Assembly: GCA_900544935.1 (NCBI GenBank)
Contig: UQXB01000002.1
Location: forward strand, 4,110-68,109
DNA length: 64,000 bases
Direction: 5' to 3'
DNA from: an uncultured Collinsella sp.
GTDB taxonomy: Bacteria; Actinomycetota; Coriobacteriia; Coriobacteriales; Coriobacteriaceae
In this document: piece after piece, positions 16,524 through 34,679 of the stretch
Numbering within the stretch: position 1 is the first letter of the stretch
Layout: every line of letters begins with the position of its first letter
Made by a program: the position numbers and the translations under genes
Notes under the pieces: model-generated
What the model was told of the DNA's origin: nothing
Databases searched by the model: none
Seen by the model: only the letters and a program-made list of their open reading frames with translations

Positions 16524-16533
16524 CGGGCACCTC

Positions 16534-17997
16534 CTACATCGGCAGTAGGCCGGAGATCACAGTCGCGACCAATCCGAACAGAACCATGAAGATAAAGAAC
16601 TTCCAGATGGTCTTCCACCATTGCCCGAAGGAGATCTTCGCCACGGCAAGACCCGCGACGGTCATGCCCGCAACGGGGCTGATGGTGTTGACGGTCTGGT
16701 TCGCGAACTGCAGAGCGGTGACGGCAGCCCCGGGATTGAGGCCCATAAGCTCGGTCAGCGGGCCCATGACGGGCATGGTGAGTGCAGCGAGGCCGGAGCT
16801 GGAAGGAACCAGCAGCGAAAGCAGGCCGAGGACGATGTACATGAAGGTGGTATAGATGAAGGACGGAGCGCCCGCAAGGAGTCCGACGAGCCAGTTAAGA
16901 ATAGAGTCGATGATCATTCCGCCCTCTGCGACGACCAGGATGCCGCGGGCGATGCCGATGATGCAGGCTGCGTAGGCGAAGTCGGCGATTCCGCGGACGA
17001 ACTCCTCCGCAATGGTCTTCTCGTCCAGGCCGCCGAGTATGCCGGCAAGAAGGCCCATGGCCAGGAACACCATGGAGATCTCGTCCATATACCAGCCCTG
17101 GGTAACGAGGCCCCACACGATAACGCCCATGCCGACCGCGAAATCAATGAGGACGAGCTTGTGGCGAAGCGTGAACTCCTCTTCGATAGAGGCATCGGTG
17201 ACAGAGAACTCGATGCGCTTCTGCTTATCGTCCTCATAGGTGATGGAGGACTTGGGATCGAGCTTGACGCGGCGCGCGTAGCGCATGGCCCAGAAAATGC
17301 CCGCGGCGGTGAAGATGACCCACAGGATGGCGCGGAGCCAAAGCTGGGGATTTCCCTCGATGCCGATAACGCCCTGGGCGATCAGCACGTTGAAAGGATC
17401 AATAGTGGATGCGCAGTAACCAAGGTTGGGGCCGAGGAAGCAGATGATGAACGCGGTCATGGAGTCATACCCGATGCTCAGCATGATGGGGATGAAGATC
17501 GCGTAGAACGGCAGCGCCTCCTCGGACATGCCGAACGTGGTGCCGCAGATCGAGAGCAGGATCATGGAGATGGGGATGATCAAGATGTCCTTGTTCTTCA
17601 GCTTCTTGATCACGCGGCTCATGCCGGCGTTTAGGGCGTTGGTCTTGGTGACGATGGCGAACGATCCGCCGATCAGCAGGACGAACGCGACGACATCGGC
17701 CGCAGCCTGAATGCCCTTGGCGGGAGCCTGCAGGACGGCATCGATGCCCTGTCGCAGATCGACGGTCTCCCCCGTCTCCGAATCGGTGTAGACCTTGTCG
17801 ACCTCTTGGTACGTTCCGGCTACGGCGACTTCTCGCTCGCCCGCGGCCGTCTGAATGGTCTGGCGGTCGAACTGACCCGATGGGACGATCCATGTGAGCA
17901 CCGCGAAGAACACGATCAGCATGAACGCGATGGTGTACACATGGGGAAGCTGGAGATGGAATCTGCGCTTGGGCTTCTCCTGTTTGGCATCCGGCAT
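16534..17997 (-). CDS. YfcC/DcuC-family polytopic membrane transporter
   Basis: About 12 TM helices. Family-typical motifs (…FLGPNLGYCASTIDPFN…). GGAGG RBS 6 nt before ATG at 17997. Confidence 0.65.
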   Translation of the reverse strand: MPDAKQEKPKRRFHLQLPHVYTIAFMLIVFFAVLTWIVPSGQFDRQTIQTAAGEREVAVAGTYQEVDKVYTDSETGETVDLRQGIDAVLQAPAKGIQAAADVVAFVLLIGGSFAIVTKTNALNAGMSRVIKKLKNKDILIIPISMILLSICGTTFGMSEEALPFYAIFIPIMLSIGYDSMTAFIICFLGPNLGYCASTIDPFNVLIAQGVIGIEGNPQLWLRAILWVIFTAAGIFWAMRYARRVKLDPKSSITYEDDKQKRIEFSVTDASIEEEFTLRHKLVLIDFAVGMGVIVWGLVTQGWYMDEISMVFLAMGLLAGILGGLDEKTIAEEFVRGIADFAYAACIIGIARGILVVAEGGMIIDSILNWLVGLLAGAPSFIYTTFMYIVLGLLSLLVPSSSGLAALTMPVMGPLTELMGLNPGAAVTALQFANQTVNTISPVAGMTVAGLAVAKISFGQWWKTIWKFFIFMVLFGLVATVISGLLPM

Positions 17998-18194
17998 TCT
18001 TAACCTCCTGCCAGAGCAACGATGCTTGCCAAAAATCCTTCACGTATAGGCAAACATCTTAGGTTGTTCTATGTATAACCTGCATGAAGGCGTCGGTCAA
18101 GAAACATATTAGGTTGTTCTATAAGTGGTAACTTTTACGCGCTAAACGGACCTGCCGCGGCAATACGAGAACAGCGCTGTGTGAGACAGAGCCG

Positions 18195-18929
18195 CTAGAT
18201 ATCGAAGCTGTAGCGCGAACCCACGTAGTACTGTCTGCCATAGCAGAAGCGCTCTCCGTTGGAATCGAGAAAGCCCGCGTTCATGAAGAACAGCGGCTCC
18301 CCTACTGGGACCTTGAGCTCGCGGGCGGCATCAATTCCCGCACGGGCGATCTCCAGCCTGCAGGGATCGGACGAGCAGGGATACCTACCCGTACGCTCCC
18401 CCACGGCCTCGAATATCGAACAATTGGAGAGACCGATATCTTTGAGAAATTCGAATCCATCGACAGGATAGTAGTTGTTCTCGAACAGGACCGGCACGCC
18501 GTCTGCGGTACGCACGCGTGAGACCAAGATGAGGTCAGAGCCTTCATCCAAGCCAAAGAAAGAAGCGAGGTCGCGATCGGCGGCAACGGTCTTGCGGGCA
18601 ACGACGCGAGCGCCCGCCTTCATGCCGTTTTCAGCGCATGCTTGGGTAAAACTCTGAACATCGTCCTTCTGATGCACCTTGCGAATTATCTTTGTCGCGG
18701 TCACAAACGTACCACGCCCCTGCCGCTTGGTGAGATACCCCTCGCCCACAAGCTCCTCTATTGCGCGGCGAACCGTGACCCTTCCCACGCCGTACATCTT
18801 AGAAAGCTCAAGTTCCGTTGGAATCTGCGAGTCAACGGGATATGTCCCCTGTTCGATATCGCTCTTAAGCAAATCGAGCACCTGTTGATACAGCGGGGCG
18901 GAAGAGCCCCCATCCAGATGCGCATCCAC
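18195..18929 (-). CDS. GntR/HutC-family transcriptional regulator (FrlR-like: wHTH + UTRA effector domain)
   Basis: N-terminal GntR HTH (IPTELELSKMYGVGRVTVRRAIEELVGEGYLTKRQGRGTFV). C-terminal UTRA-like domain. Sits at the head of the minus-strand sugar-amine locus. Confidence 0.75.
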   Translation of the reverse strand: MDAHLDGGSSAPLYQQVLDLLKSDIEQGTYPVDSQIPTELELSKMYGVGRVTVRRAIEELVGEGYLTKRQGRGTFVTATKIIRKVHQKDDVQSFTQACAENGMKAGARVVARKTVAADRDLASFFGLDEGSDLILVSRVRTADGVPVLFENNYYPVDGFEFLKDIGLSNCSIFEAVGERTGRYPCSSDPCRLEIARAGIDAARELKVPVGEPLFFMNAGFLDSNGERFCYGRQYYVGSRYSFDI

Positions 18930-20054
18930 AAAAACTCTCCCTTTAAGGCGTTCGCGATCTCAACGACTCCATTCTACCGCACACGGAAAAATGAGGTTAA
19001 ACACATAGGGGCCCTGCATGTTTGAGCGTATCGGGAATCTGGTCGCTGATTTCGTCCGCATTTGCTTGCGAAAAACCAAAACGCTCCTCGCGCTTGGCGA
19101 ACACGGTGAGGCCCGCCGCCTTGCACGCAGCGATCGATGATGCTCGTGTGATGTTGGCTTCCTTCCTTTGCTTGCGAGGCGCGTCACTCGTCCTGCTGAG
19201 CCGCGGGCCCATCGTTCGGCGTGGCCTGCCTGCGCGGGGCATGCCGGGAATTGATGTAGTCGTATGCGTAGGCGATCTCCGTGACGGGGACCTCCACGTG
19301 GTAATGGGCGGAAATGTCAGAGAAGCTCGTGCGGAATGCGATCGAGGTAGGCTCTGTGTCTCGGGGATGTTCATGCGGCTGGTCCTCCTTTCGCCACACA
19401 CCTTACGGGCGGGGTGGTGCGCGGAACGGGTTGGCGCCAGTGTTTCGTCACGGGCGCGTGCACTTCGGCACTCCATGCTACATCTGAGTGGCATATGGCG
19501 ACTTCTCGACACTCGCGCTCGACACAGCGAGCGGAAATGGCGCTGCCTGCCGAGCGCCTCGCGGGCGCATCCCGACCGCAGAAGTGAGCGCGAAGGCTCG
19601 TCGAAGTGCTGGGTGGGGGACCGGCGGTCTGGATACGCGGTTTCGTTCGGCGAAGGCGGCGAGGCGAATGGCATGGCGAACGTACGGGTTTGACGTGAAC
19701 GGGTTGCCCGTGGCGGCGTGGTATCGGGAGGAGACGGTCGAGCAGGTGCTCGCGCCGCTGCTCGCCCGTCTCGCGCGCTCGCATCAGGAGAAGGGGTCGC
19801 AGGCCCATCTCGGCAACCCGGTGCGCATACGCTATTGCGACCGGGACGGCCACGTGTCGCGAACGGATATCGTCCGCCAGGTGGACGTCGCGCCGCGAAA
19901 TGCAGACTCGCCTCAATCGTCGGTAAGGGGTGCCGCGGGCGATACGATGGAATCCACGGACCGCACCGCGCCGCCGAGATTGCGACGCGAACGCAGGCGA
20001 TGCGCCCGAAAAACTCCTCCGCGCATGTAGGGCGAAACGCCAGATTGGAGCTCC

Positions 20055-21255
20055 ATGAACGATTTCTCCTTCTACTCCCCCACCCGCTTTGTCTTTGGGC
20101 GAAAAGCGACCGACAAGGTTGGGGGACTCTGTCCGCCTCCGGCTACCGCTGAGCGCTCATTGTCTACGGCAGGGGTTCCGCAGTTCGCTGCGGAACGCTC
20201 GTCCGCGTGAGGGCATCGCTCGATGCCGCGGGCGTGGAGCACATCGGGCTTGGAGGGGTGCGTCCAAACCCCGAAATAGGCTTGGCACGAGAAGGCGTCG
20301 AGCTCGCACGGGCAAACGACGCCGACATCATCCTGCCCGTGGGCGGCGGCTCCGTCATGGACTGCGCGAAGGCCATCGCACTGGGGCGGTATACGACGGC
20401 GACGTATGGGACTTCTTCCGCAAGCGCGCCGTTCCCGCCGACCGCATCGACGTCGCCTGCGTGGTGACCATCCCCGCATCCGGTTCCGAGGCCTCTAACT
20501 CCTGCGTTATCAGCAACGACGAGGAGCACCTCAAATGCAGCATTAACACGGACCTCAACCGCCCGGCCATCGCCTTCCTCGACCCGGAGCTGACCTTCAG
20601 CCTGCCCGCCTGCCAGACCGCCGCGGGAGTGACCGACATGATCGCCCATATCATGGAGCGACTCTTCTCCGGCGAGCCCGCCGTGGGCGTAACCGACAAC
20701 ATCGCCTGCGGGCTAGTGCGCGCCGCGAGGGAGGCGGCGCCCAAGGTGATGGAGAACCCCGATGACTACGACGCCCGCGCCGAGATCATGTGGGTGGGTA
20801 CGCTCGCCCATAACGCCCTGCGCGACGGCGATTGGACCTGCCGCGGCCTTGAGCACGAGCTATCCGCACTGGACACCAAGATCACGCACGGCGCCGGCCT
20901 CGCCGTCATCTTCCCCGCCTGGATGCGCTACGTATGGCGAGAGCACCCTGAGCGCTTCCTGGAGTTCAGCGCCCAGGCCCTTGGCATCGAACCCATCGAT
21001 TCGGACGCGGACGAGCTCGATGTGGAGGTAACCCCCGAGCAGGCAATCGAGTACGCGGTCGAAGCGACCATCGACGAGCTGCAGGATTTCTTCGTCTCGC
21101 TGGGAATGCCGCGCGCGCTATCGGAGTTCGGAGTCACCGAGGACGATATCGAAAAGATGATTCCGGGCCTCAAGATCAACCGCGGAGAGCTCTTCGGCAG
21201 CTTCAGGAAGCTCACGCTGGACAACGCGAGAAAGATTTACCGCAGCGCACTCTAG
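20055..21255 (+). pseudogene. iron-containing alcohol dehydrogenase (Fe-ADH / butanol dehydrogenase-like) disrupted by two frameshifts
   Basis: Frame 0 gives the N-terminus MNDFSFYSPTRFVFGRKATDKVG and then stops. The reading continues in another frame (ALIVYGRGSAVR…VRASLDAAGVEHIGLGGVRPNPEIGLAREGVELARANDADIILPVGGGSVMDCAKAIALG). It then shifts again at a GGGG run near 20388 into the frame of ORF 20089..21255 (AVYDGDVWDFF…). All three pieces together match the Fe-ADH family. Confidence 0.7.
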
Positions 21256-21345
21256 GAAACAGATGCCAGTCCCCCACGGGCGAGCAGCACGGCGGCCCCC
21301 GCAAACCAGAAACGGCGCCGCTCCCGCGACGCCGTCATATTCCCT

Positions 21346-21391
21346 GGTGCCCCCGGGCGGATTCGAACCGTCGACACCCGCTTTAGGAGAT
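21346..21391. repeat. attL: 46-bp direct repeat, a partial copy of the tRNA-Arg 3' end
   Basis: TGGTGCCCCCGGGCGGATTCGAACCGTCGACACCCGCTTTAGGAGA is identical to 34680-34725 inside the intact tRNA-Arg gene. Confidence 0.75.
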
Positions 21392-21581
21392 ATGATTTAA
21401 TGCTACCCCCTACCATTCATCAAGCATCATTGAACAGCATATAACCGCAGATAAACATAGCAGTTTGTGTCTTTTGCCTCCGGTAGCTGCGCCTACGCTT
21501 TTACAAACATATTACTAACAGCTTTAGCTAAACTGCACTCAATGAATTGTTGAAAACTATTCAAAGAAACGGAGCGCAAAG

Positions 21582-22829
21582 ATGACAGAACAGCCACTAA
21601 TTAGCGGAAGAGGCACGTGTTGGAAAGACAAGAGATCACCTAACACCTATCGCTATTATTTTTCCCTTGGAGTCAAGGACCCTAAGACGGGGCGCTACAA
21701 ACGATCCCCAACTTATACAGTCCGTTGCAAGACTAAAACAGAAGCTAAGGCTGCAATGCAGGCCAAGCTGGCTGAAATCAACTCCTCTGGCACGATCACT
21801 AAAACTAAAAAGCCCACTTTGCTTGCGTCCTACTGCTGGGCCTTTCATGAAAATAGGGACACCGAGCTTGCGCCAACGAGCTATGAAAGAGAAGCGTACG
21901 ATTGCAGGCATATCGAAGACCTATTCGGTGCGTTTCAGACAATTGAGGGGCTAACTCCCGATCTAATCGAAGAAACATATGCCGAAGCTCGTCGTACGGG
22001 AAAATACAAACCATCAGAGCTTGTACGAATCAATGCGAAACTGCGTCAGATTTTGTCGAATGCAGTCGCAAAGAGAATAATTGACCGAAACCCCTGCGCT
22101 ACCGTTCATGTTCGCAGACCACGCAACAAAAGAGAATCACTGACAATCGACCAAGTAGCTACCCTATGCACACATCTTCAACACATTGAGCTCACCGCCG
22201 AAGCTGTTGGTACACTAGTACTAGTGTATACGGGCATGCGGAAAGGCGAGATGCTGGGCCTCGAATGGCGCGATTGGGACCCTGCCAATAAAACCTTGAA
22301 AATTGACAGGCAGTACACCAACGACCATGAACTGAGGGCACCCAAGTCACAAGAAAGCCAACGCAAAATCCCCGTTGGAGAAACCTTGGCCGAACGTCTT
22401 CAATCATGGTCAGCCATACAAAAAGAGCTCCTGGCCTCTCTGGGGCTGTCCCAGACTGGCAGCACTCCCATCATTAGCGATATTGCTGTCGAGCAAGGGA
22501 TCCCTACTGTCTGTCACATGAAAAACTACATCTTCAACCATTGGTTTCGCGATTTCGCAGTTAGCTGCAATCTTGGAATCTATGAGCCGAACAATTCGAC
22601 TGGCGGAAAACTATATAAGGGCATCTGCCCGCATCAGCTCAGGCATTGTGTAAGCACTTTTATGCTGGCGAACGGATCGGACGTTAGAAGCGTGCAAGGT
22701 ATTCTTGGCCACGCGGACCCCAATATCACGCTCAAAACGTATACAAGCCTCGTTCAACAATCAGAAATAAAAGCAGTTAAAGGCTACGAAGCCTTCATCA
22801 ACGCCTATATACAGAGAAGCGAGAAATAG
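21582..22829 (+). CDS. int: tyrosine-type site-specific integrase
   Basis: C-terminal catalytic region …CPHQLRHCVSTFMLANGSDVRSVQGILGHADPNITLKTYTSL (R-H-R-Y motifs). GGAG RBS. Adjacent to attL. Confidence 0.85.
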   Translation: MTEQPLISGRGTCWKDKRSPNTYRYYFSLGVKDPKTGRYKRSPTYTVRCKTKTEAKAAMQAKLAEINSSGTITKTKKPTLLASYCWAFHENRDTELAPTSYEREAYDCRHIEDLFGAFQTIEGLTPDLIEETYAEARRTGKYKPSELVRINAKLRQILSNAVAKRIIDRNPCATVHVRRPRNKRESLTIDQVATLCTHLQHIELTAEAVGTLVLVYTGMRKGEMLGLEWRDWDPANKTLKIDRQYTNDHELRAPKSQESQRKIPVGETLAERLQSWSAIQKELLASLGLSQTGSTPIISDIAVEQGIPTVCHMKNYIFNHWFRDFAVSCNLGIYEPNNSTGGKLYKGICPHQLRHCVSTFMLANGSDVRSVQGILGHADPNITLKTYTSLVQQSEIKAVKGYEAFINAYIQRSEK

Positions 22830-23047
22830 CATGTTTTTCATTCATCGTTTATTTCATAATATTACGGTACTATAATACCGTTTCCGCAGGTAGATGCTTT
22901 ATTTGATTGACATCTAATGCGTTTTAATACATGCTAAAGCTGTCAGATGGCTACGCATGTAGTCATAGAAACCGGCCCCCCAAGTGCTTATGAACCTGGT
23001 ACGTCTTACAAGCACAGGGAGGGCCCTCATTGAAAGGATAGCTCATC

Positions 23048-23293
23048 ATGGCTACTCCAAAGATTAGCACTCAGGCGTCCACACCGACTTTCCCCACTGG
23101 TGCCGCTCAGTGCGATCGGTTGCTCCGCGTTAACGATATCCGCGAACTCACTGGCTGGAGCGAAAACACCGCACGCAAGTTTATGCGAGAGTCCGGCAAG
23201 CTCATCCAGATCCATCGCTCTAATTACATGTTTGAAAGCTCGTTCTACGAGCTTTTCAAGCAGCTTGAAGGTCGTACCGCCCACCTTGATTAG
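23048..23293 (+). CDS. small HTH DNA-binding protein, excisionase/AlpA-like
   Basis: 81 aa. LLRVNDIRELTGWSENTARKFMRESGKL resembles an MerR/Xis-type HTH. Lies immediately downstream of the integrase. Confidence 0.5.
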   Translation: MATPKISTQASTPTFPTGAAQCDRLLRVNDIRELTGWSENTARKFMRESGKLIQIHRSNYMFESSFYELFKQLEGRTAHLD

Positions 23294-23302
23294 GTGGTAA
23301 AC

Positions 23303-23689
23303 ATGAGCGAGCTTCCGTCGATTTCCGACATATTTAGCGATGATGCTACTGAGCAACGAGAGATTACGGGAAAAATGGATAAGGCTATTTTTATTTCAGT
23401 GCCCGAGTGGGCGTGCTGCGTCACCACCGTTGCCGCCGAGCGTCTCATCCTCGGCCTTGTATGGAAGTTTGGAAAACCTTCCAAAAACAAACGGCCCATG
23501 GGCTTCTGCGCTAAAAGCAAATGGATTGAGGATCACTACCGCCTGAGTAAGAACACGATATCCCGGGCCTATACCTCTCTGAAGGATAAGGGGTATATTC
23601 AAAAAGTTGGTGATGGCAGCTGGATGCTTAATTACGCCGCAATCTACCGCGCCGCGATTGAAAACGCTTGGGAGCCTCCGAAACTTTAA
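23303..23689 (+). CDS. winged-helix DNA-binding protein (replication-initiator / repressor-like)
   Basis: ATG at 23303 with GGTGG 5 nt upstream. C-terminal KNTISRAYTSLKDKGYIQKVGDGSW resembles a wHTH. Function inferred only from fold-like motifs. Confidence 0.4.
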   Translation: MSELPSISDIFSDDATEQREITGKMDKAIFISVPEWACCVTTVAAERLILGLVWKFGKPSKNKRPMGFCAKSKWIEDHYRLSKNTISRAYTSLKDKGYIQKVGDGSWMLNYAAIYRAAIENAWEPPKL

Positions 23690-24141
23690 GCCCACAAACC
23701 GACTATCGAGGTCGTGAGAGTCGGTCACCGTCAGGATGCCCACAAGAACATGCCGCGGATGTAAAATGAAGCAGGGTCGAACCGAAACAGTTCCCGGACA
23801 ATTGGTGTCCGGCCAGACACTTCGATTCGACCCTTTCTCATGCCTGCATCTAAAATACTCCCACAATCATTCTCGACATCTTTAACGCCCTCACCTCCTG
23901 CCACCAACACGTCGTAGACGCTATTTACAACGAATCGATATGGCCGCCCGTTCTTTAAGGCACGTGTTACCATGAAAACGTGCGGTATTTCTCCAACCGA
24001 AAACCTGCGTGAACGCATGACTTGAGACGCCTTTTAGAACTCACCGATCGCAGGGCGAACACAAATCAACAGCGGCCGTGCATTGTTCCCAGCCATATGG
24101 CATGGCGGAGCCATGCCCGTTGTTGATTGGAGTGCCGCACC

Positions 24142-24711
24142 ATGGCAGACGAGAAGAAAATCAGGGAGATCTACGGCGTGAAGTCCGTCCTCGATGAGGC
24201 CGCCGAGCGGATCGAGGCGACGTGGCGGGAGAAGCTGCTGCGCGAGACGGGCGACCTCAGAACCGAGAACGCGTTGCTCAGGGCCCAGCTCGACGAATTC
24301 AACCGCAAGCTCGTCGAGGCGAGAGACCGGAACGAAAGACTTGAGGCCGACTGCAATGAGCGGGTCGCCTTTATCGAGGAGAAGTTCGAACTCGATACCG
24401 CGAGCCTCGAGCTCGAGAACAACGAGCTTCATGCCGCGAGCGTCAGATACCTCGCCGATGCCAGGGAGCTCGACAGGCAGGTCGTCCAGCTCCATGCCGA
24501 GGCCGTGGCCATGGTCGATGAGATCGAGCGCCTGCGCGGCGAGCGTGACGCCGCGCTGAAAGCCCAAGCCGAGTTGAACGACGCACTCCTGGCCCAGCGC
24601 GACCTGATGGCCGAGCTCGCCGCCCTCAAGGACCGCCTTGCCGCCTCCGAGCAGCGGGCGGCCGTGGCCGAGGCCAAGGTCGAGGTCATGACCCAGATGA
24701 AGGACGAGTAG
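24142..24711 (+). CDS. coiled-coil protein, hypothetical
   Basis: Heptad-rich Glu/Arg/Leu sequence with no TM. GGAG 9 nt before ATG. Convergent with the phosphoesterase operon. Confidence 0.45.
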   Translation: MADEKKIREIYGVKSVLDEAAERIEATWREKLLRETGDLRTENALLRAQLDEFNRKLVEARDRNERLEADCNERVAFIEEKFELDTASLELENNELHAASVRYLADARELDRQVVQLHAEAVAMVDEIERLRGERDAALKAQAELNDALLAQRDLMAELAALKDRLAASEQRAAVAEAKVEVMTQMKDE

Positions 24712-24753
24712 CCCCGCGCTTCTCCTGTCAGGCTGCTGATTTCTAGGAATCTT

Positions 24754-25491
24754 CTAGAGCGCTTCCAGAAGGTTCCTAGAACCGGGCGCAGCATCTTCGA
24801 TCGGCACGATGTCTCGGTAGATCAGGCGATGTCTGTCGTCGCGCCATTCGTCGCCGTGATAATGTCCGAAGAACCAGGCTCGGTAGCCGAGCCGCCCGTC
24901 GAGCTCGCCAAGGAATCGTTGCAGCCGGTCGCCTCGATACTCGCGCCCGCGCTCGCGGCACAGCTTCTCTGCCAGGACGGCAGGGGCCTCATGCGTCACC
25001 ACGTAATCGACCCTCCAGCCTACGCGGTCGAGCGAGGAACGGCAGTGGTCCATCTCCTCCTCGCTCGGCATCTCCTCGGGCCACCAGCTCCTCCCCTCCT
25101 TGCGATACTGCCTGTCGTTGCTTGCGGCACCGCCCATGGCAAGGACCGTGAGCCCACCGATGTCGAACACCTCCCCACGCATCAGGTGCAGCACGTGCGG
25201 TCGCGCCTCATGGACGAGCCCACCGTTCCACTCCCGCACCGGCAGTTCTGCCAGGGCGTGGTGGTTCTCATGGTTGCCGTCTACGAAACACGTGGTCCAG
25301 GGCTTCGACTCGAGCCAGTCGAGCCAGTATTTTTCGGCGTTGGACCCATCCCAGACAAAGCCGAAGTCGCCGGCCACGATCACCGCGTCATCGCGCGTCA
25401 GGGTCCGGCCCAGCGGCCAATTTTTGAAAGCAAACCGGCTGGACCCGTACTCGGCCCTGCCGTGCACGTCGCCTGTCACATAGACCGTCAT
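24754..25491 (-). CDS. calcineurin-like metallophosphoesterase (paralog 1 of 3)
   Basis: MTVYVTGDVHG…IVAGDFGF…FVDGNHENHHAL…GHYHGDEW metallophosphatase motifs. ATG overlaps the stop of paralog 2 (ATGA). Confidence 0.7.
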   Translation of the reverse strand: MTVYVTGDVHGRAEYGSSRFAFKNWPLGRTLTRDDAVIVAGDFGFVWDGSNAEKYWLDWLESKPWTTCFVDGNHENHHALAELPVREWNGGLVHEARPHVLHLMRGEVFDIGGLTVLAMGGAASNDRQYRKEGRSWWPEEMPSEEEMDHCRSSLDRVGWRVDYVVTHEAPAVLAEKLCRERGREYRGDRLQRFLGELDGRLGYRAWFFGHYHGDEWRDDRHRLIYRDIVPIEDAAPGSRNLLEAL

Positions 25492-26216
25492 CAGTACGCA
25501 CCCCACGGCAGGAGTTTGCCCCCGAGCCTCACGATCCGGTCATACAGCACCGTGTGCCGTTCGTCCGGATTGCCGTCTCGGTGAAAATGTCCGTAATACC
25601 AGTGCTTATAGTCCAGGCGGTCTTCGAGCTCGTCGAGGAATCCGGTCAGCCGGTCCACATCAGGGCGTTCCCAGCCTGGGTCCGGGTAGAGCGTCGGCGA
25701 GAGCATGCGCGTGGCGCAGGTATGGGTGATGACGCAGTCGACCTTCCAGCCGACCTCGTCGAGCTTTGCCCGCGCGGTATCGAAATCGCGCTCGTCCGGG
25801 AGCTCCTGAGGCCACCAGCTGGAATACGGCACGCGGTATTCCCTGTCCACGCTCGTGGCACCGCCCATGGTGAAGACCGTCGAGCCGTCGAGCTCGAAGA
25901 CCTCCCCGCGCATGAGGCGGCGGATGGACGAAGTATCCGACAGGCGCTGCGTCAGCCCGCCGTGCCACGGCTCCATGGGGCGCTCCTCCCAGTGGTCGAA
26001 GCGCTCGTGGTTGCCGTCGACGAACAGTACCGTGTAGGGGCGCGACTCCAGCCAGGCGATGTCGGCGCATTCCTCGGCAGAGAAGTCCCACGGAAAGCCA
26101 AAGTCGCCGGCAACGATGAGATAGTCGTCGCCGGTAAGGCTATCGCCAAGCTCCCAGTCGCGGAGCTTTTGCATGTCGAGCCCACCGTGGATGTCGCCCG
26201 TCACATAGACCGTCAT
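25491..26216 (-). CDS. calcineurin-like metallophosphoesterase (paralog 2 of 3)
   Basis: MTVYVTGDIHGG…IVAGDFGF…FVDGNHERF…YGHFHRD. N-terminal identity to paralog 1 is clear by eye. ATG overlaps the stop of paralog 3 (ATGA). Confidence 0.7.
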   Translation of the reverse strand: MTVYVTGDIHGGLDMQKLRDWELGDSLTGDDYLIVAGDFGFPWDFSAEECADIAWLESRPYTVLFVDGNHERFDHWEERPMEPWHGGLTQRLSDTSSIRRLMRGEVFELDGSTVFTMGGATSVDREYRVPYSSWWPQELPDERDFDTARAKLDEVGWKVDCVITHTCATRMLSPTLYPDPGWERPDVDRLTGFLDELEDRLDYKHWYYGHFHRDGNPDERHTVLYDRIVRLGGKLLPWGAY

Positions 26217-26851
26217 CGGATCGCCTCTTCCCTCTTGTACGCCGCCAGCTCGCGCTCGACCTGCCTGTCGCCGGTCTCGTTGACCCACCAGGGCCATTTC
26301 ACCCGGCCGCACGGCTCGTCGACTCCGGCGAACCATTCCCTCAGCTCGTCAAGACTCACCGGGGAGTGCCCGTTGGCATCGCAACCGACGTCGTAGCGCA
26401 GAAGGCCCTGCTTGCGGTTGAACCCGTTGTACGCGCCGCCGCTGCTGTGGATGTGCCCGTGGAGGTGCCACGATCCATGGCTCATGCCCTGCCAGTCGGC
26501 CATGGGGTAATGGCTCAGGACGATCTTCTGCCCGTCGATCTTGAGCACGCAGATCGGCGGCTCCACGGTGAAGGCGCCCGCGACCGCCGGCTGGGTCCAG
26601 TCCTTGTCGTGGTTTCCCGGGACGAGGTGGATGCGCCTGCAGGCGATCCGCTTGCGCAGCCCGTAGGCGTCCTGGGCGGTCATCTTGAATGAGAAATCAC
26701 CCAGGATGTAGAGTTCGTCGTCCACGGCAACCCTGCCGTTGATGCTGTCGACGATGGCGTCGTTCATCTGCCAAATCGTCTCCCACGGGCGGTCGGTGAA
26801 CTTCAGCACGTTCTCATGCCCGAAGTGGGTGTCGCTGGTAAACCAGATCAT
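26213..26851 (-). CDS. calcineurin-like metallophosphoesterase (paralog 3 of 3, more divergent)
   Basis: MIWFTSDTHFGH…ILGDFSF…VPGNHD…HLHGHIHSSG. AAGGAG RBS 8 nt before ATG at 26851. First gene of the three-gene operon. Confidence 0.7.
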   Translation of the reverse strand: MIWFTSDTHFGHENVLKFTDRPWETIWQMNDAIVDSINGRVAVDDELYILGDFSFKMTAQDAYGLRKRIACRRIHLVPGNHDKDWTQPAVAGAFTVEPPICVLKIDGQKIVLSHYPMADWQGMSHGSWHLHGHIHSSGGAYNGFNRKQGLLRYDVGCDANGHSPVSLDELREWFAGVDEPCGRVKWPWWVNETGDRQVERELAAYKREEAIR

Positions 26852-27114
26852 ATTTATGTCTCCTTCTGTCGCTAAAAAACGTTCTCCCTCGAGGTCAGGA
26901 GACGTTTTATGAGCGACATGAGGTGCATATCCCTCATGTTTCAAGCTCCAATCTGCCGGATTTGCCCAACTAAAAGTTTACGCCCACGCGCGAACAGGAT
27001 TTGATTTTTGAAATATGGACGAATTCCTCGTCAGGAGGGTAAAATGGTGCCGACGGCAGCCCAAGTTGTAGAGAGCTGGGCAGAGCCGTTGCTTAACGAA
27101 GTTAGGTCATCGTC

Positions 27115-27240
27115 TTAGCGACGGTGGCCTTTCTTTTTGGGCTTCGAACCCTGCTTGAGTGCCTTGGAAAGGCCGACAAGGGCCGTGAGGAGCGAGACCA
27201 TAGCGGTCAGGAGCTTCACGGACTCAGTGAAATCGGTCAT
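27115..27240 (-). CDS. 41-aa hydrophobic mini-protein with basic C-terminal tail (candidate type I toxin / small membrane peptide)
   Basis: GGAGGTG 6 nt upstream of the ATG. Translation MTDFTESVKLLTAMVSLLTALVGLSKALKQGSKPKKKGHRR with TAA stop. Below the ORF-track size cutoff. Confidence 0.4.
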   Translation of the reverse strand: MTDFTESVKLLTAMVSLLTALVGLSKALKQGSKPKKKGHRR

Positions 27241-27427
27241 GGGCATCACCTCCCATCGGATGGAGGACTCTGCCCGGCACGAGAGCTGCCGCCAGCAAGG
27301 ACGATTCTATCAGAGCGGCTGACTCCCGCCGATCAATTCATACTCCTCACCCTCGCCGAATTGCGAGCATGAAAGAATCGGCACTGAATAGCAGCGCGCT
27401 AGGGCACCGACGATAGGCTTTCCAAAA

Positions 27428-28627
27428 CTAGCGAGGCGTGTTGCCGTGCGAGTAGTCACCGCGATCGACGACGCGATCGTCCATCTGCCGCGATGCGGAG
27501 CTTCCGCCATGTGCTTGGCCTGCGGCGCGAACGCGGTCGTCGCCGGCATCGGGAACGGCGCCGGCGTAACGATTGCGAATCTCCCTTGCGTAACCGCGAC
27601 GCGCAAGAAGCTCATCGCGAACCGCCGGATCTTCGAGCAGATCTTCATCGCACTTCGGGGCAACGAATTTAGGAAACGAATTGTAGGCGACGCCTTTGCT
27701 CGCCTTCGCCTGCTCGACCCACGCCGAGTATGCTTTCTTGAGACGCTTGATGTAAATCTCACAACGTTTCTCGTATGGAAGGGCTCGCTCGGCTTCCAAC
27801 ACGTTATTTTCGAAAGCCATCTGCAACGACTTCAACGCGAAGCGCCCGTCGAGACGGGTCAGGTTGAAAGTGCACTTCGGATTGCCGGCCTCTTTGATAT
27901 CGAGATCTGTCGCATAGACTCGATTGTTCTTGATGAAAATGTCTACGCCCCATGAGGCAAGTAATTTCTTGAACTGCTCCATATTCTTTACGCGACCTTC
28001 GTCGATCGCAATATGGATCAGCTCGCGCAGATTGTTTTTATAACTGTACTCACCGCGACCGATAATCTCCTTTTCTGTGTCGCGCGGCTGGCGATCGCGA
28101 ATCTTCGAATTCTTCTTTCCCTTTTCGAGCTGAGTGAGATTCCAGGCCTCGTCCATTTCACGAACCCATGCAGCGCGTTCGTACTTTCCCTTGCGACCGC
28201 CGATGTCGCAACGCTTGCCGGTGTCAAGGTCTGTCCGGTTGATCGCCATGTGCACTGCGTAGCGTTTTCCCGCCTTATCGCTTTCTTCATGCAGCGCGAG
28301 AATCACTTGTTGATGCGGATAGTGCTTCGCAAGCCATTGCTCCGCGTAGGCCAAACATGCATCGGGAGTCATCTTGCCCCCGTTGCATGAGCATTCTTCC
28401 GGAAGGAACGCGAGGATCTGATGAAGCAGGATTACGTTTTTGGCTCCGGCTCTCGACGGTTTGTCGTGATGGAAAACCTTTCTGGTTCTATCCATTTTCG
28501 AAAACCAGCGATCGCTGTATTCGATGTTCCAGCCACCACGCACAAGCGCATCTTTTCCGTTGATGTATTTACGGACGTTCTTCGCATACCGTTCACTCGA
28601 AACACTCTTCTGCTTAATGACGGTCAT
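27428..28627 (-). CDS. mobilization relaxase (MobA/MobL- or Mob_Pre-like)
   Basis: N-terminal relaxase-like region with His-rich motif ILALHEESDKAGKRYAVHMAINR. ATG overlaps the mobC stop. Gene pair with MobC. Confidence 0.6.
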   Translation of the reverse strand: MTVIKQKSVSSERYAKNVRKYINGKDALVRGGWNIEYSDRWFSKMDRTRKVFHHDKPSRAGAKNVILLHQILAFLPEECSCNGGKMTPDACLAYAEQWLAKHYPHQQVILALHEESDKAGKRYAVHMAINRTDLDTGKRCDIGGRKGKYERAAWVREMDEAWNLTQLEKGKKNSKIRDRQPRDTEKEIIGRGEYSYKNNLRELIHIAIDEGRVKNMEQFKKLLASWGVDIFIKNNRVYATDLDIKEAGNPKCTFNLTRLDGRFALKSLQMAFENNVLEAERALPYEKRCEIYIKRLKKAYSAWVEQAKASKGVAYNSFPKFVAPKCDEDLLEDPAVRDELLARRGYAREIRNRYAGAVPDAGDDRVRAAGQAHGGSSASRQMDDRVVDRGDYSHGNTPR

Positions 28628-29156
28628 TTTGGTCACCGCCGACGAAATATCGCTTCTCAAACTCGTCGATGAAACGGTCCAGCTTACGCCCAACTTGGTA
28701 AACCTTTTCGAGCGTGCGGAAAACAGCTTTCTCGTTGTACGCGGGAAGCCCCTGGGCGTTCACAAAATACATCAGCTGATTGAGGTTTGTTCCTTCCTTC
28801 AAAAGTTCGTGATAAATCTTGTCGATCGACGCCCGATCGACATCGATTTTCTCGACATTCCCTTTGAGCAGTACGCGACGTGCATACGCACTGACAGTCA
28901 TATCGAGGGAATCAGCATTGCTTTCAATTTTCGTTTTTTCTTCCGGTGAGACCCGGACGTGAATGTCATCGGTTCGGAATTTCTGGTCAGCGATTTCTGA
29001 AAAACCAAAATCGATATCGAGATCGTCGGCATTGCACAAAGCAAAGCGGATGAGTTCCGCCTCGCTCATCTCATGTCGCTTTGCGATTGCAGTGATGGCT
29101 TTCTTCTCTTCATCGGAAAGAGACGCCTTGACGGTGTGTGGGCGGAGCCTACTCAT
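28614..29156 (-). CDS. mobC: MobC-family relaxosome accessory protein (ribbon-helix-helix)
   Basis: SDEEKKAITAIAKRHEMSEAELIRFAL (RHH). VSPEEKTKIESNADSLDMTVSAYARRVL typical of MobC. Confidence 0.6.
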   Translation of the reverse strand: MSRLRPHTVKASLSDEEKKAITAIAKRHEMSEAELIRFALCNADDLDIDFGFSEIADQKFRTDDIHVRVSPEEKTKIESNADSLDMTVSAYARRVLLKGNVEKIDVDRASIDKIYHELLKEGTNLNQLMYFVNAQGLPAYNEKAVFRTLEKVYQVGRKLDRFIDEFEKRYFVGGDQNDRH

Positions 29157-29516
29157 GATTCCTCCGGAAAACGAATCAGCGATCGGAGAGGCCTCCGATC
29201 AAAACCTGCTATGCGATTCGCTTTCCTTTTAATGAGGAACGGCTGGCGTCGTTCCAAAATGAAGAATCGTCTCCGCGATTCTTCATCGCGAAGTTCCAAC
29301 TTCACGATAACCTTATCGCCGTAGCAGGCGGTAAGCAAGGTCTGTGGCGTGGTGTTTTTGGGGTCCGAATGGGCCCACAAAAATGCCACCCACAGTCATC
29401 TTGCAATCACCGGTACGGCGATTGGGCGGAACGCAGTGTAGACATGGAATAAGAGGCCTCATTCCAAGCGAGATGCCTCGCGTTGTCGAAACGAAAAGTG
29501 AAGACCGTGAGCGGAA

Positions 29517-29603
29517 GCGAACTTTTAACGCGAGGGATGCCGAGTGTTAAGAGTTCGCTGTAGCGAGAGCGAAGCGGTACTGCGAATGCGAGGGATGCCG
29601 AGT
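29517..29603. promoter_or_regulatory. candidate oriT: 13-bp inverted repeat with 16-nt loop plus a direct repeat of the loop sequence
   Basis: GCGAACTTTTAAC-GCGAGGGATGCCGAGT-GTTAAGAGTTCGC at 29517-29558. GCGAGGGATGCCGAGT is repeated at 29588-29603. Lies upstream of mobC. Confidence 0.35.
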
Positions 29604-29846
29604 TTTTGCATTACCGCGCAGCGGACTCCGGGCGAGGGCTGGAGCAAGTTGATGGAAGACCTTACCGATTTGCGGAAGGTTTTGCCCGAAGCATCCGGCA
29701 CCGCCGGATTCTTTTGGAACGGCCTCTCGTTTGATTGCTTTCCTATCGTTTGCTCCCAGACTGGGCGTCTAAAAAAGGCGGCCGAAACCGGCCGCCCGCA
29801 AATAAATATTTATTTACCGAATGTAAGAGGAGAGGAACGATGCACA

Positions 29847-30518
29847 TTACTCCCAGTGGCCGGCGACGTCGACAACCCAATGCTGCCCCGTAGCCTGCTG
29901 TTCATAATGTCCCTGGTCCTCAGATGTGGTATACGAATCGTTTACGACAGATCCTCCGATGCCGCCGTTGTCCATATCATTATGAGCCCACGAATAGGCG
30001 GCATCTTCGGAATCGAAGGGCCCTACCATAGTACCACCATGGTTGACCCAGAAACGAGGATGGCGCGTATACACTACATTCGGCACCCAGACCTGGCTGT
30101 AATCTGTCTCCCAGTGTCCCTGCTCGGCAACCCACTTCTTCTGGCTACCGCCGTTGGAAGAGGAATTGTTGCTGCCGGAACTCTGCGAATTGCTGGAATT
30201 CTGCTTGGAGTCGGAGGAGTTTCCCTTGCTGTCAGACTTCGACGAGTCGGAAGACTTGTTATCCTCTTTCTTGGAGTCATCGGACTTCTGGTCCTTGCCG
30301 TCGGATTCTTTCTTCTCCTCGTTCTTGGTTCCAGAGGCTTGCGCCGCCTTTTCTTCGCTCGGCTTCTTTTTGTCTTTATTCTTTACCGCTGTGACGGCCC
30401 TTTCCGTAGAGCCGCTTCCTTGCTTTGCAACGCTGGCACATCCAAGTTGAGGTGCCGAAAGGCACACCAGAAGCGCAACGATAATAGCCTTTGTTCTCAC
30501 ACCGATCTCCCTGCCCAT
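29847..30518 (-). CDS. Ser/Lys-rich secreted lipoprotein
   Basis: Signal peptide with lipobox-like LSAPQLGC-A. Long low-complexity KKPSEEK…SSDSSKSDSKGNSSDSKQNSS region. C-terminal globular Trp/His-rich domain. Confidence 0.55.
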   Translation of the reverse strand: MGREIGVRTKAIIVALLVCLSAPQLGCASVAKQGSGSTERAVTAVKNKDKKKPSEEKAAQASGTKNEEKKESDGKDQKSDDSKKEDNKSSDSSKSDSKGNSSDSKQNSSNSQSSGSNNSSSNGGSQKKWVAEQGHWETDYSQVWVPNVVYTRHPRFWVNHGGTMVGPFDSEDAAYSWAHNDMDNGGIGGSVVNDSYTTSEDQGHYEQQATGQHWVVDVAGHWE

Positions 30519-30565
30519 GAAACCGGGCGTTGGACACCAGCCGATATCCAACGCTCGGCTCGCTT

Positions 30566-33500
30566 TTACATCTGCTCGCGGCGCTTCTTTTGATCGAGGA
30601 AGACGCCGGCTGCCACGAGGACGGTACCGCCGATGACGAACGTCTCGCCGATGAGTCCCGCGCGGTCGCCGGTCTGGGCGAGGCTGCCGGGCTGGGCGGT
30701 ATCCGTGCCGGCGAGGTGCTTCGGGGTGTATGCCGCCTGCTGCTTTGCGGCCTCCTCTGCCTCCTGTCGTGCGATCTCATCGGAAAGCTTCTGCTCCGCC
30801 GCGATGCGGTCGGACTTCGCCGACTCGTAGGCGGCGAGTGCCGCATCATAGCCGGGCTGGAGCCCGTCCACCGCGGCCTGCTTCTCGTCCAGGATTGCCT
30901 TGGCGGGCGCGACCTTGGCACGTGCCTCGACTGCTGCGGCGAAAAGCGCGTTGAGGGCGTCATCCGCGTTCGCGTCATGGCCGGAAGCGATCGCCGCGCC
31001 GGCGTCGATGGAGTTCAGCTTCGACAGCTTGGCGTCTGCCTGCGCCTTCGCCTGCTCGGCGGCGGAGACCAGGGACTCGGCGGCGATGGCATCCGCCTTC
31101 GCGGCATCGAGGGCGGCCTTGGTGTCATTGACGGCCTTTACTGCATCCTGCTCGCGCTGCTGTGACTCTGCGAGCTTCGCGGCAAGGCCGGTGAGGATGT
31201 CGAGGTTCGACTGTGCGTCATCGAGATCGGTCTGGGAGCCGGTGAGCCTGTCGGCGGCAACGCCGGTGTCGGTCTTTGCGGCATCGACGGCACGCTGGGC
31301 ATCCGCGAGGGCGCGTGCGGTGGCGTCCGCCTTTTGCTCGGCGGCGGCGAGGACGGTCGCTTTCTCGGTCTGATCGGCTACCGCCGAGTCATGGACGCTC
31401 TTTGCTGTATCGAGCGCCTTCTTGGCGTCGGCGACGTCCTGGAAGAACTTCGCGAGGTCGGCGTTCGCATCGTCCACGCCCTGCTGCTTGGATGCGGTGT
31501 CCGCCTTGGCGGAGTCCAGCTTGGACTGTGCGGTCGTTACGGCTGCGTTGGCGGCATTAAAGGCGACCTGCTTCTGCTGGACGGTCGACTTTGCCGTATC
31601 GACGGCTACGTTGGCGGCATCGAGGTCCGATTTCGCCGCATCAAGCTCGGTCTGGGCATCCGTGACGCCCTGCTGCTTGGCGGCGACATCAGCCTTGGCT
31701 ACATCGACGGCACGCTGGGCATCGGTGACATCCTGCTTCGCGGCATCGACACCTGTCTGTGCGGCATCGAAGGCATCCTGCTTCTGCTGGACGGTTGCTG
31801 CGGCGCCGGCGGCTGCCTGCTGCTTGGATGCGAGATCGGCCTTGGCTGCGTCGAGTGCGCTCTTGGCGTTCTTGAGACCGTTGATATAGGAGGTCAGCTT
31901 CTGCTCGTACTCGTCGACGGAGATGGCTCCGGTATTCCAGCCCGAACCGGCCCAACCGCCGTATTGCAGCGTGAGCGAGAACGTCAAACGGGTGTCATCG
32001 TTCAGACCGCATCCCATGACAGCATAGTCAGGGTTGATGATGTTCATGTAATGACCGATACGGTAGTAATCGAACTTGTCCTGGTTGGCGTACCAGAAGT
32101 CGTAGGCGTCCTTTCCGGAAAGATTCGTCGCACCAAGGGATGCTGCAGTCTTGTCAAACAGATCCTTTTCCTGATAGATCCAGGCCTTGCAGGGGTCGCG
32201 ATAGCCCCAGGCAAGGTTTTCACCGACATCGAACTGCTGGGCATGCTCTACATTTTTCGTCGAATAGTTTGCATCTGCAATCGCTGCCGCAATGAGCTTA
32301 TAGCTTACCTCAAGCTCGGAAAGGCCGACGGACTTACGGTAGGCGTTCACGTTCTTCATGACCGTGATGGACGAAAGCATGTTTTCAAGGCCCGTTGCGT
32401 CGAGACTGTTTCCGATCTCGGTGTAGTCTTTGTACGTGCAGTTCTGGATGATCTCGATGGCTGAATCGGCACCCATGGCCTTGAAGAAACCGATGGCTCC
32501 CTGCTTGAGCTGCGCGTCTGCGAGATCCACCTTCGTTTGTGCCTCGTCGACCTTCTGCTGGGCGGCGGTCACGGCCGCGTCTGCGGTATCCTTTGCGGTC
32601 TTGGCGTTCGCGAGCTCTACGTCTGCGGCTGCCTTGGCGGACTCGGCGTCCTTGACAGCCTGCTTCGCGGCGTCCAGCTTGGCGACGGCGTCGGCATTCG
32701 CCTGCGTGGCGGCATCGAGGTCGGCGTTCGCGGCATCGAGTGCGGACTGGGCGGCGTTCACGCCGGATTCGGCATCGGTCGCGGCCTGCTGCTTCGCGGA
32801 GAAGGACGCCTGGGCATCGTTCAGTTCGGTCTGTGCCGTTGCTGCAGCGGACTGCGCCTGCTCGAGCTCGGACTCGCACTGGGACTGTGTCGCTTGTGCG
32901 GCAGCGAGGGCTGCCTCTGCGTCCGCGACCTTCTGTTTTGCCGCATCGTACTCCGGACCGCTGGCGCCTGCCTCCGCTGCGGCGAGGTCGGTTTTCGCCT
33001 TCTCGTAGGCGGCGCTGGCGGCTGCGGCCTTCGCATCCGCTGCGTCCTTGTTCTGCTGGGCTGCGACAAGGACGGCATCGGCGGCATCCTTGGCAGACTG
33101 GGCCGCAACCAGCTTGGACTGGGCATCGGCAAGCGTCGCGTTGGCGTTGTCAAGTTCGGCCTGTGCCCTGCTCACGGCATCCGTGGCGTCGCGCACGGCC
33201 TGCTCGGCGGCACTGATTGCCTCCGGGGTGGCGCTTACGGCATCTGCCTTGGCTTTATCGAGGGCATCCTTGGCATCCTGGGCCGCCTTGAGGGCGGACT
33301 GGTACGCTTCGTCCTTCTCGGACGCATCTGCCTTGGCGTCTGCGAGACCCGCCTTCGCCTGCTCGAGGTCCTTGCCGGCGGCATCGGCGACGTCCTTGCC
33401 CTCCGCGACCTGACGGGCGTACTCGTCCATCGCCGCACGGTCGGCTGCCGTGCCGGCGCTGACCGCCGAATCGTAGGATGCCTTGGCCTGGTCGCGGGCG

Positions 33501-33865
33501 GAAGCCGCCTCGTTGTAGGGACCGGCGGCCTCATCGTAGGATGCCTTGGCGGCGTCCTCCTTCGCCTTCGCCTCGTCGACTGCCTTCTGCAGGTCCGCGA
33601 TGGTCTGTGCGGCGGATTTCGCGCCGGTACCGGATGCCGCGCCGGCGTGGGCGGCGATCGGCGACATCACGGCGGGGTGCTGTGTGCCCCCGTCACCGGT
33701 CTGGGCGAATGCCGTGAACGGTGAGATGAGGCTCGATCCGGTCATGGCGGCCATGGTCGCCGCGGTGACGGTCAGACGCGCGATCCCCTTCGGAGTGTGA
33801 ATCTTTTTGTTTGGCAGTGCGGCGAAGTGATCGCCGCCGACAGCGAAATGCTTTCCCTGAGTCAT
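30566..33865 (-). CDS. 1099-aa sortase-anchored (LAQTG) coiled-coil surface protein with embedded CAP/SCP/PR-1-like domain
   Basis: AAGGAA RBS. N-terminal signal peptide. Hundreds of residues of Ala/Asp/Lys/Gln-rich repeats (AKADxxxAxxxLDxAK…). Central globular region with CAP-like motifs (VGENLAWGY, IGHYMNIINP). C-terminal LAQTG followed by a hydrophobic stretch and a KKRREQ tail. Confidence 0.7.
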   Translation of the reverse strand: MTQGKHFAVGGDHFAALPNKKIHTPKGIARLTVTAATMAAMTGSSLISPFTAFAQTGDGGTQHPAVMSPIAAHAGAASGTGAKSAAQTIADLQKAVDEAKAKEDAAKASYDEAAGPYNEAASARDQAKASYDSAVSAGTAADRAAMDEYARQVAEGKDVADAAGKDLEQAKAGLADAKADASEKDEAYQSALKAAQDAKDALDKAKADAVSATPEAISAAEQAVRDATDAVSRAQAELDNANATLADAQSKLVAAQSAKDAADAVLVAAQQNKDAADAKAAAASAAYEKAKTDLAAAEAGASGPEYDAAKQKVADAEAALAAAQATQSQCESELEQAQSAAATAQTELNDAQASFSAKQQAATDAESGVNAAQSALDAANADLDAATQANADAVAKLDAAKQAVKDAESAKAAADVELANAKTAKDTADAAVTAAQQKVDEAQTKVDLADAQLKQGAIGFFKAMGADSAIEIIQNCTYKDYTEIGNSLDATGLENMLSSITVMKNVNAYRKSVGLSELEVSYKLIAAAIADANYSTKNVEHAQQFDVGENLAWGYRDPCKAWIYQEKDLFDKTAASLGATNLSGKDAYDFWYANQDKFDYYRIGHYMNIINPDYAVMGCGLNDDTRLTFSLTLQYGGWAGSGWNTGAISVDEYEQKLTSYINGLKNAKSALDAAKADLASKQQAAAGAAATVQQKQDAFDAAQTGVDAAKQDVTDAQRAVDVAKADVAAKQQGVTDAQTELDAAKSDLDAANVAVDTAKSTVQQKQVAFNAANAAVTTAQSKLDSAKADTASKQQGVDDANADLAKFFQDVADAKKALDTAKSVHDSAVADQTEKATVLAAAEQKADATARALADAQRAVDAAKTDTGVAADRLTGSQTDLDDAQSNLDILTGLAAKLAESQQREQDAVKAVNDTKAALDAAKADAIAAESLVSAAEQAKAQADAKLSKLNSIDAGAAIASGHDANADDALNALFAAAVEARAKVAPAKAILDEKQAAVDGLQPGYDAALAAYESAKSDRIAAEQKLSDEIARQEAEEAAKQQAAYTPKHLAGTDTAQPGSLAQTGDRAGLIGETFVIGGTVLVAAGVFLDQKKRREQM

Positions 33866-33987
33866 TGCTATTCCATTCCTTTTCCGTGCCCTATCCGACT
33901 GGGCATCAGAGTGCTTTCCAATAGAGATAATTATGCGCCTTAACTGGGATTGTTGTATATAGTCCGTTGGCATAAATACAACAATCC

Positions 33988-34236: not shown

Positions 34237-34386
34237 TCCATCATCAGCGAACGCAGTGAGCGTATCAATCGACGGCGTAGCCGGCGGCAAGGACACGGTA
34301 CGTGGCCGCGCAGCGAGCTTTGCGAGCGAAGGGGACGGCATCGCCGTCCCTATTTCTTTCTAATCTATTTCTCTATATATTGGTTT

Positions 34387-34550: not shown

Positions 34551-34679
34551 TTTCCTGTTTTCAGTGGAAAACTCGGGAAGTCATAATATTTACTTACCAG
34601 ATTTACAAACGGAAGCGGTTCTTAACCCCAAAACCAGAACAGGTCAGAAGCAAAAATAACTCCTGACCTGCGATTTTCC

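Follow-up and report, generated by a model that had tools for sequence, protein, structure and literature searches.

Several calcineurin-like metallophosphoesterases (MPEs) carried by phages have been described. According to Dutta et al. 2014 (as cited in PMC12287305), the gp66 protein of mycobacteriophage D29 is a phosphodiesterase of 2',3'-cyclic nucleotides, and two further proteins have assigned roles: Bxb1 gp47 is a recombination directionality factor (RDF), and A10ZJ24 gp48 is a DNase counter-defence protein (PMC12287305). The present analysis concerns three adjacent MPE genes, called A, B and C here, in a 64,000-nucleotide stretch of DNA from an uncultured Collinsella sp. (contig UQXB01000002.1 of assembly GCA_900544935.1), which is referred to as the window. 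They lie on an integrative mobilizable element (IME) and are new members of two known, functionally uncharacterised MPE families. The reading we favour, tentatively and with somewhat less than even confidence, is that they form an accessory operon of three phosphodiesterases which is carried by Collinsella IMEs and plasmids and acts on nucleotide or nucleic-acid substrates. The three genes are as follows.

26213-26851, minus strand: gene A, first in the operon, a 212-aa metallophosphoesterase of the AQ1665 / D29 gp66 family, with a Shine-Dalgarno sequence GAAGGAG 8 nt upstream
25491-26216, minus strand: gene B, a 241-aa metallophosphoesterase of PHROG 1649, whose ATG overlaps the stop of A
24754-25491, minus strand: gene C, a 245-aa paralogue of B (48% identity), whose start codon ATG overlaps the stop of B by one base

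All three translations score above the 21.5-bit cut-off of the Pfam family Metallophos (PF00149), A marginally so (22.0 bits, with 32.7 for B and 45.1 for C), and all three carry the five metal-binding motifs of the superfamily (DxH, GD, GNH[DE], H and GHxH). The motifs read SDTHFGH / GDF / GNHD / SH / HGHIH in A and GD[IV]HG / GDFG / GNHE / TH / GH[FY]H in B and C; an earlier note on this DNA had picked out the GDxHG, GDxx, GNH[DE] and GH motifs, and the motifs are present in these forms. The same note took the three for paralogues, which is true of B and C alone (pairwise E 2e-63). Gene A comes from a different family, and its pairwise similarity to B or C is not significant (E 0.03-0.1). 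A matches the profile phrog_547 'phosphoesterase' over its full length (E 1e-47) and matches the fold of PDB 1xm7, which places it in the PHROG 547 / AQ1665 / D29 gp66 family; the one solved relative found for it by sequence is that same structural-genomics protein, aq_1665 (E 7e-10). B and C match phrog_1649 'metallo-phosphoesterase' over essentially the full length (E 2.2e-36 over residues 1-232 and E 2.1e-34 over residues 1-213). A PDB sequence search found no solved relatives for B or C, a match of B to calcineurin being marginal (E 0.28), and NCBIfam holds no curated family, housekeeping or other, that matches either.

Three Coriobacteriia homologues (P0112, P0114 and P0063) are intermediate between B and C, with identities of 61% (B) and 73-77% (C), or of 71% (B) and 68% (C), which points to recombination within the pair or to older lineages of it. 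Domain fusions of B/C-type proteins were considered as a functional clue and set aside as uninformative; they are heterogeneous (ankyrin, AAA, DUF7695 and a probably mis-fused ROK/PTS).

The structure of B was predicted with high model confidence (pLDDT, the predicted local distance difference test, 96.4), and known structures were ranked against the model. Dbr1 scored 15.4, aq_1956 14.8, CWF19L1 14.5 and PptH 14.2, followed by Lmo2642, MPPED2, GpdQ, Rv0805 and Mre11/SbcD at 11-13, with lambda phosphatase (7.4), PP5 (7.1) and ApaH (6.3) further away. The neighbours near the top include the phosphodiesterases Dbr1 (the RNA lariat debranching enzyme), aq_1956 and PptH. A Foldseek comparison with viral models returned generic names only.

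Conservation was surveyed with one genome per GTDB species, and the best 80 loci were returned, all but a few of them labelled Collinsella or Coriobacteriaceae. All three genes are present in 80/80 of these loci, in the order A-B-C in 57 and C-A-B in 23. The trio is conserved together in related elements, a point on which the earlier note had let its proposal stand or fall. The C-A-B loci, with identities of 78%, 78% and 86%, adjoin the chromosomal gene gluQRS and have no integrase or relaxase within 6 kb. Proteins identical to A, B and C are encoded on ~20 human-gut metagenome contigs with different backbones: some hold the same integrated element in more than one chromosomal neighbourhood, and others are plasmid-like, with ParA, a resolvase and ParE. 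The three are also found at 95-98% identity on 23-30 kb C. aerofaciens plasmids, one of them the type strain's pCaero1. By blastn the 3.35-kb segment shared by the integrated element and the plasmid-like contigs consists of a gene for a coiled-coil protein, C, B, A and ~480 nt upstream, including a 41-aa open reading frame (ORF). The pCaero1-type plasmids share window positions 24741-26980 plus flanks; their homologue of the coiled-coil gene has diverged and is separated from C by two additional genes.

Pairs of A-like and B-like genes occur in three further loci. In L029 the order is a CAP-domain protein, the B-like gene, two large unfamiliar proteins and the A-like gene; in L198 it is a CAP-like protein, a small ORF, the B-like gene and the A-like gene; and in L200, which is a different integrative element, the A-like gene is followed directly by the B-like gene. 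Judged by these arrangements, the A-type and B-type pair is the recurrent conserved core, and C is an extra paralogue specific to Collinsella. The two unfamiliar proteins of L029 (1295 and 625 aa, within 4792-10537) have no relatives in Pfam, NCBIfam, PADLOC or the PDB, and the stop of the 625-aa gene overlaps the start of the A-like gene. The B-like copy of L200 (6643-7362) may be catalytically dead, as GRYR replaces the metal-binding motif GHFH; its element carries an integrase, a NikA-like protein, a VapE-like primase and TnpV.

A, B and C are real genes and not chance ORFs. The ratio of nonsynonymous to synonymous substitution rates (dN/dS) between orthologous loci and the window genes is 0.10-0.15 for each gene in both arrangement classes, and the metal ligands are intact in 76/78 orthologous loci for A, 79/80 for B and 79/80 for C (97-99%). 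Gene C keeps all of the metal ligands and the family-specific Arg. Complete active sites and purifying selection mark the three as functional enzymes that selection holds together. The ORF listing and a reading of the strand bear out three consecutive minus-strand genes at exactly the coordinates given above, as the earlier note had them. Its statement that every stop overlaps the next start as ATGA holds for A/B (a 4-nt overlap) and fails for B/C, where the minus strand reads TGATG and the overlap is 1 nt. Both junctions are compatible with translational coupling, and the overlaps at both support the note's view of a co-expressed unit. A promoter and terminator scan found nothing above background for the A-B-C operon itself.

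Both families are widespread. B-type genes occur in 275 phage records, mostly actinophages, and A-type genes in 1258 records from many hosts. A library of 1.84 billion proteins yields 5409 representatives of the B/C family at E <= 1e-3, and one 90%-identity cluster each for A and for B gathers ~12,000-13,000 sequences. The B/C-type gene of temperate phages belongs to the early operon, where it directly follows cro/xis or a repressor gene. The 4.8-kb Veillonella plasmid pVJL1 (L023, NC_019271.1), with four annotated genes, has an A-type MPE at 201-758 that is 46% identical to A, which hints at a plasmid-serving role for the family.

Under the reading we favour, A, B and C would be cytoplasmic binuclear-metal phosphoesterases with several specificities, whose joint production would serve the element. 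The candidate targets of A are 2',3'-cyclic phosphate or cyclic-nucleotide-type bonds, and B and C might cleave some unusual phosphodiester; in either case the substrates would be derived from nucleotides or nucleic acids, not phosphoproteins. The benefit might lie in removing nucleotide signals or damaged RNA or DNA ends made by host defences, or alternatively in end processing during establishment, and we infer a counter-defence or end-processing purpose of this kind. This reading is favoured by the family placement and the PHROG that A shares with D29 gp66, by the trio being kept as a unit across backbones, by the A and B pairs of L029, L198 and L200, by the low dN/dS with its intact ligands, and by the abundance of the families in phages and the early-operon position of the B/C-type gene there. 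A more specific version would have the three diesterases destroy several of the recipient's immune nucleotide messengers or branched nucleic acids. Its targets could include cyclic oligonucleotides with 3'-5' and 2'-5' linkages, products of the 2',3'-cyclic kind and 2'-5' branches like those of retrons, in view of the predicted Dbr1-like fold of B and C. We consider this version improbable. If it were true, these would be the first counter-defence phosphodiesterases with the MPE fold, and the first such set coupled on a non-phage element.

Several observations weigh against an accessory role of this sort. In 79 diverse viral loci of the B/C type the gene never has a second copy beside it, and 5/79 have an A-type gene within 5 kb; of 79 diverse A-type viral loci, 8 have a B/C-like neighbour, a strong one in 2 cases. 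Tandem B/C genes and the whole trio are therefore specific to Collinsella and its relatives, in which both are ubiquitous. The earlier note had called such a trio unusual on an integrative element; this holds against the viral loci, where neither tandem nor trio was seen, and does not hold within Collinsella and its relatives. No defence or anti-defence family was matched by A, B or C in PADLOC-DB 2.0. A literature search found no paper tying the A or the B/C family to signal degradation, and it brought up nothing specific on anti-defence enzymes of the MPE type, on MPEs in leading regions or on MPEs of Collinsella plasmids. The operon lies downstream of the relaxase genes and, if NikA/relaxase plasmids are a guide, would enter the recipient late, not in the leading region.

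The single chromosomal homologues of A and B (61-88% identity) also count against it, as their housekeeping contexts suit a role in the cell better than one tied to the element. One with 63% identity to B stands alone between LysR and spermine synthase/GreA/LysRS genes, another with 61% identity to A is likewise a chromosomal singleton, and one C. aerofaciens replicon has only a B-like gene (88%), beside gluQRS. On this account the three would be host-type enzymes of nucleotide or cofactor phosphodiester turnover, of which elements bear extra copies as neutral or dosage cargo, and the C-A-B version without a nearby integrase or relaxase fits it too. The earlier note had agreed to yield if profile searches placed the genes in a housekeeping family such as YfcE or ApaH, commonly found singly on chromosomes. 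Single homologues do exist, yet neither family fits: the profile for YfcE / MJ0936 (Metallophos_2, PF12850) does not reach its gathering cut-off of 27 bits, and ApaH (Ap4A hydrolase) is neither a profile match nor the closest fold. The A and the B/C family are moreover strongly associated with phages and plasmids, the trio keeps changing backbones as a unit, NCBIfam offers no curated housekeeping family for B and C, and the chromosomal C-A-B island is strain-variable and linked to the same CAP-domain gene as the elements. We rate the housekeeping account as unlikely. At the gluQRS site, the homology between strains begins exactly at the B-like gene (L093 from 5831 onwards, compared with L111), and the upstream segment, made up of the CAP gene, a 146-aa gene, C and A, is present in some strains and replaced in another by DUF4342 and a two-component system; B may be the ancestral chromosomal gene there.

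Somewhat more doubtful is the idea that at least one of the enzymes cuts DNA, and either degrades the DNA of host or competitors, or processes ends or adducts while the plasmid replicates or transfers, in the manner of Mre11/SbcD or PdeM. DNase and counter-defence activity was reported for one phage MPE, the cluster A mycobacteriophage gp48 (PMC12287305), and the operon comes after the relaxase genes of the integrated element and after dnaB in plasmid NZ_CP084005. That protein and Bxb1 gp47 belong, however, to PHROG 221 and not to 547 or 1649, and C has no similarity to them; a DNase expressed constitutively would burden a plasmid that is stably maintained; and the PdeM ligase-associated endonuclease profile (TIGR04123) was rejected, since A scores 21.3 bits against a cut-off of 150 and a ligase gene is absent nearby. 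Less probable again is defence cargo: the enzymes would guard host and element from phages and competing plasmids, perhaps through the breakdown of a nucleotide or nucleic-acid intermediate specific to phages. Defence genes are frequent passengers of mobile elements, a PUA-calcineurin-HAD system is among the defence systems on record (bioRxiv 10.64898/2026.01.15.699771), and the A- and B-like genes of L029 flank two large unfamiliar proteins. PADLOC-DB 2.0 gave nothing for A or the coiled-coil protein and, for B and C, weak partial matches to the candidate PDC-S10 (E 1e-4 to 1e-5). These span 47 residues only, namely the shared metal-binding motifs, and a known defence system was rejected on that ground; a sensor, an ATPase and a regulatory domain are all absent, and the frequency of the same families in phage early regions would put them on the offensive side. 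The earlier note's proposal of phosphodiesterase or nuclease effectors is the better of its two alternatives, although it finds no defence family behind it.

Its other alternative had lambda-phosphatase-type Ser/Thr/Tyr phosphatases rewiring the host's kinase/FHA/PP2C signalling. The N-terminal GDxHG and GNHE motifs, the marginal match of B to calcineurin and the presence of that signalling cluster within the window speak for it. The PPP-specific GDxVDRG is absent, however, with GDFGF in B and C and GDFSF in A in its place, and there is no match to PPP, PrpA/B, ApaH or NinI profiles in Pfam, NCBIfam or PHROG. One temperate phage with a B/C-type gene carries a separate NinI-like phosphatase. 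With lambda phosphatase also a distant fold, we rejected this candidate on motifs, profiles and fold ranking, and hold it to be very improbable. The kinase/FHA/PP2C genes form a conserved actinobacterial division cluster that merely lies near the tRNA-Arg attachment site, and since plasmids and further chromosomal sites bear the identical cassette, its proximity to pknB is incidental.

The coiled-coil protein, which the earlier note had proposed as an acting partner, was likewise rejected in that role. Its gene is present in 57/57 A-B-C loci, in 0 of 23 C-A-B loci and in 0 of the three other A and B arrangements, and the protein has no significant family match in Pfam, NCBIfam, PHROG, PADLOC or PDB sequence searches. 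Because it travels with a single module lineage, a required partnership is unlikely, and it reads as a fellow traveller.

The integrative mobile element proposed in the earlier note is borne out by the attachment (att) repeats, the tRNA-Arg gene and the integrase. A 51-nt direct repeat at 21340-21390 and 34675-34725 duplicates the 3' part of tRNA-Arg(CCT) and bounds an element of 13.3 kb. Its parts, apart from the operon, are listed below.

21340-21390, no strand: att repeat, a partial copy of the 3' end of tRNA-Arg, left end of the element (repeat search)
21582-22829, plus strand: tyrosine integrase (PF00589, E 4e-20)
23048-23689, plus strand: genes for an 81-aa excisionase-like and a 131-aa helix-turn-helix / replication-initiator-like protein (weak matches; conserved beside the integrase in related loci)
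23980-27330, no strand: the module common to the integrated element and plasmid-like contigs (3.35 kb, 93-96% nucleotide identity by blastn against L016 and L008)
24142-24711, plus strand: the 189-aa coiled-coil gene, convergent to the operon, which travels with the A-B-C module only
27115-27240, minus strand: the 41-aa ORF upstream of A, type I toxin-like, combining a hydrophobic helix with a basic tail; it belongs to the shared module
27428-28627, minus strand: MobA/VirD2-type relaxase (PF03432, E 6e-7), upstream of the operon on the same strand
28614-29156, minus strand: NikA-like accessory protein (PF21983, E 2.5e-21)
29847-33973, minus strand: element cargo, a 234-aa Ser-rich protein and a 1135-aa repetitive CAP-domain protein (PF00188, E 2e-10; repeats)
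34680-34755, minus strand: tRNA-Arg(CCT), with the second att repeat (34675-34725) as right end of the element (tRNA and repeat detection)

No type IV secretion system or mating-pore genes were found among the ORFs of 21340-34725. The integrase, the att repeats and the relaxase with NikA, in the absence of mating-pore genes, make this an integrative mobilizable element. An Rfam scan of the element found only the tRNA.

The 41-aa peptide, MTDFTESVKLLTAMVSLLTALVGLSKALKQGSKPKKKGHRR, has a strong Shine-Dalgarno sequence and, with its hydrophobic helix and basic tail, resembles a type I toxin. A plus-strand promoter-like sequence (27016-27045) and a terminator-like hairpin (27104-27130) predict an antisense RNA of ~80 nt over the 3' end of the ORF. 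The peptide is kept in 46 A-B-C module loci, is absent from the C-A-B loci, and its ORF is annotated as a gene in metagenome contigs. An Ala-rich, repetitive CAP-domain (PF00188) protein of ~1100 aa accompanies the MPE genes on the element, on plasmids and in the chromosomal C-A-B islands (window 30566-33973, minus strand; L029 403-3678; L093 378-3857; NZ_CP084005 18787-22065), and L198 has a 1130-aa protein at the equivalent position with no Pfam match on record. The element is 390 nt away from pknB in L020, against ~10 kb in the window (12046-21255), where genes for an AP endonuclease, an amidohydrolase, DcuC, GntR and an alcohol dehydrogenase lie between the two. The difference in spacing suggests a second island or an integration hotspot at the tRNA-Arg locus.

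Phages, plasmids and human-gut metagenomes abound in members of the two families, which have essentially no assigned function. In Collinsella the pairing of A-type and B-type genes survives changes of gene order and swaps of backbone, which is a genetic hint of one pathway, and the locus provides a compact, highly conserved operon in which that idea can be tested. If the substrates were immune signalling nucleotides or damaged RNA or DNA ends, a new fold would join the counter-defence toolkit of mobile elements; if the enzymes were ordinary housekeeping diesterases, the module would be routine cargo.

Set beside the known systems, the lambda Ser/Thr phosphatase (NinI) and the PPP enzymes share the superfamily and the first and third motifs. 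Dbr1 and PptH of M. tuberculosis are fold neighbours of B at 18-20% identity, where a sequence relationship is not detectable; B has no Dbr1 C-terminal domain and presumably lacks the Dbr1 active-site Cys. On the predicted structure, the resemblance is one of fold class and not of family membership. Bxb1 gp47 and A10ZJ24 gp48 are, like A to C, calcineurin-like phosphoesterases of mobile origin, being phage-borne and having accessory or counter-defence roles (PMC12287305). Bxb1 gp47 differs in family (PHROG 221, E 5e-116) and has no similarity to C (BLASTP E 3.8), and an RDF or DNase role like theirs was rejected for this reason. The PHROG 1649 phage proteins (among them Mycobacterium phage MiniLon gp46, Streptomyces phage gp210-238 and Oscillospirales phage XPP58145) are 27-32% identical to B and C, match them in length and have in common with them the invariant residues H10, D38, N69, R103, G118-G119, S122, H165, H210 and H212; the viral gene is single, whereas here two diverged copies stand beside an A-type gene. 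Gene A shares PHROG 547 with D29 gp66 and Aquifex aq_1665 (PDB 1xm7). Unlike them, it carries a conserved C-terminal helical extension of 35 residues and sits on a plasmid or IME, in an operon with two other MPEs.

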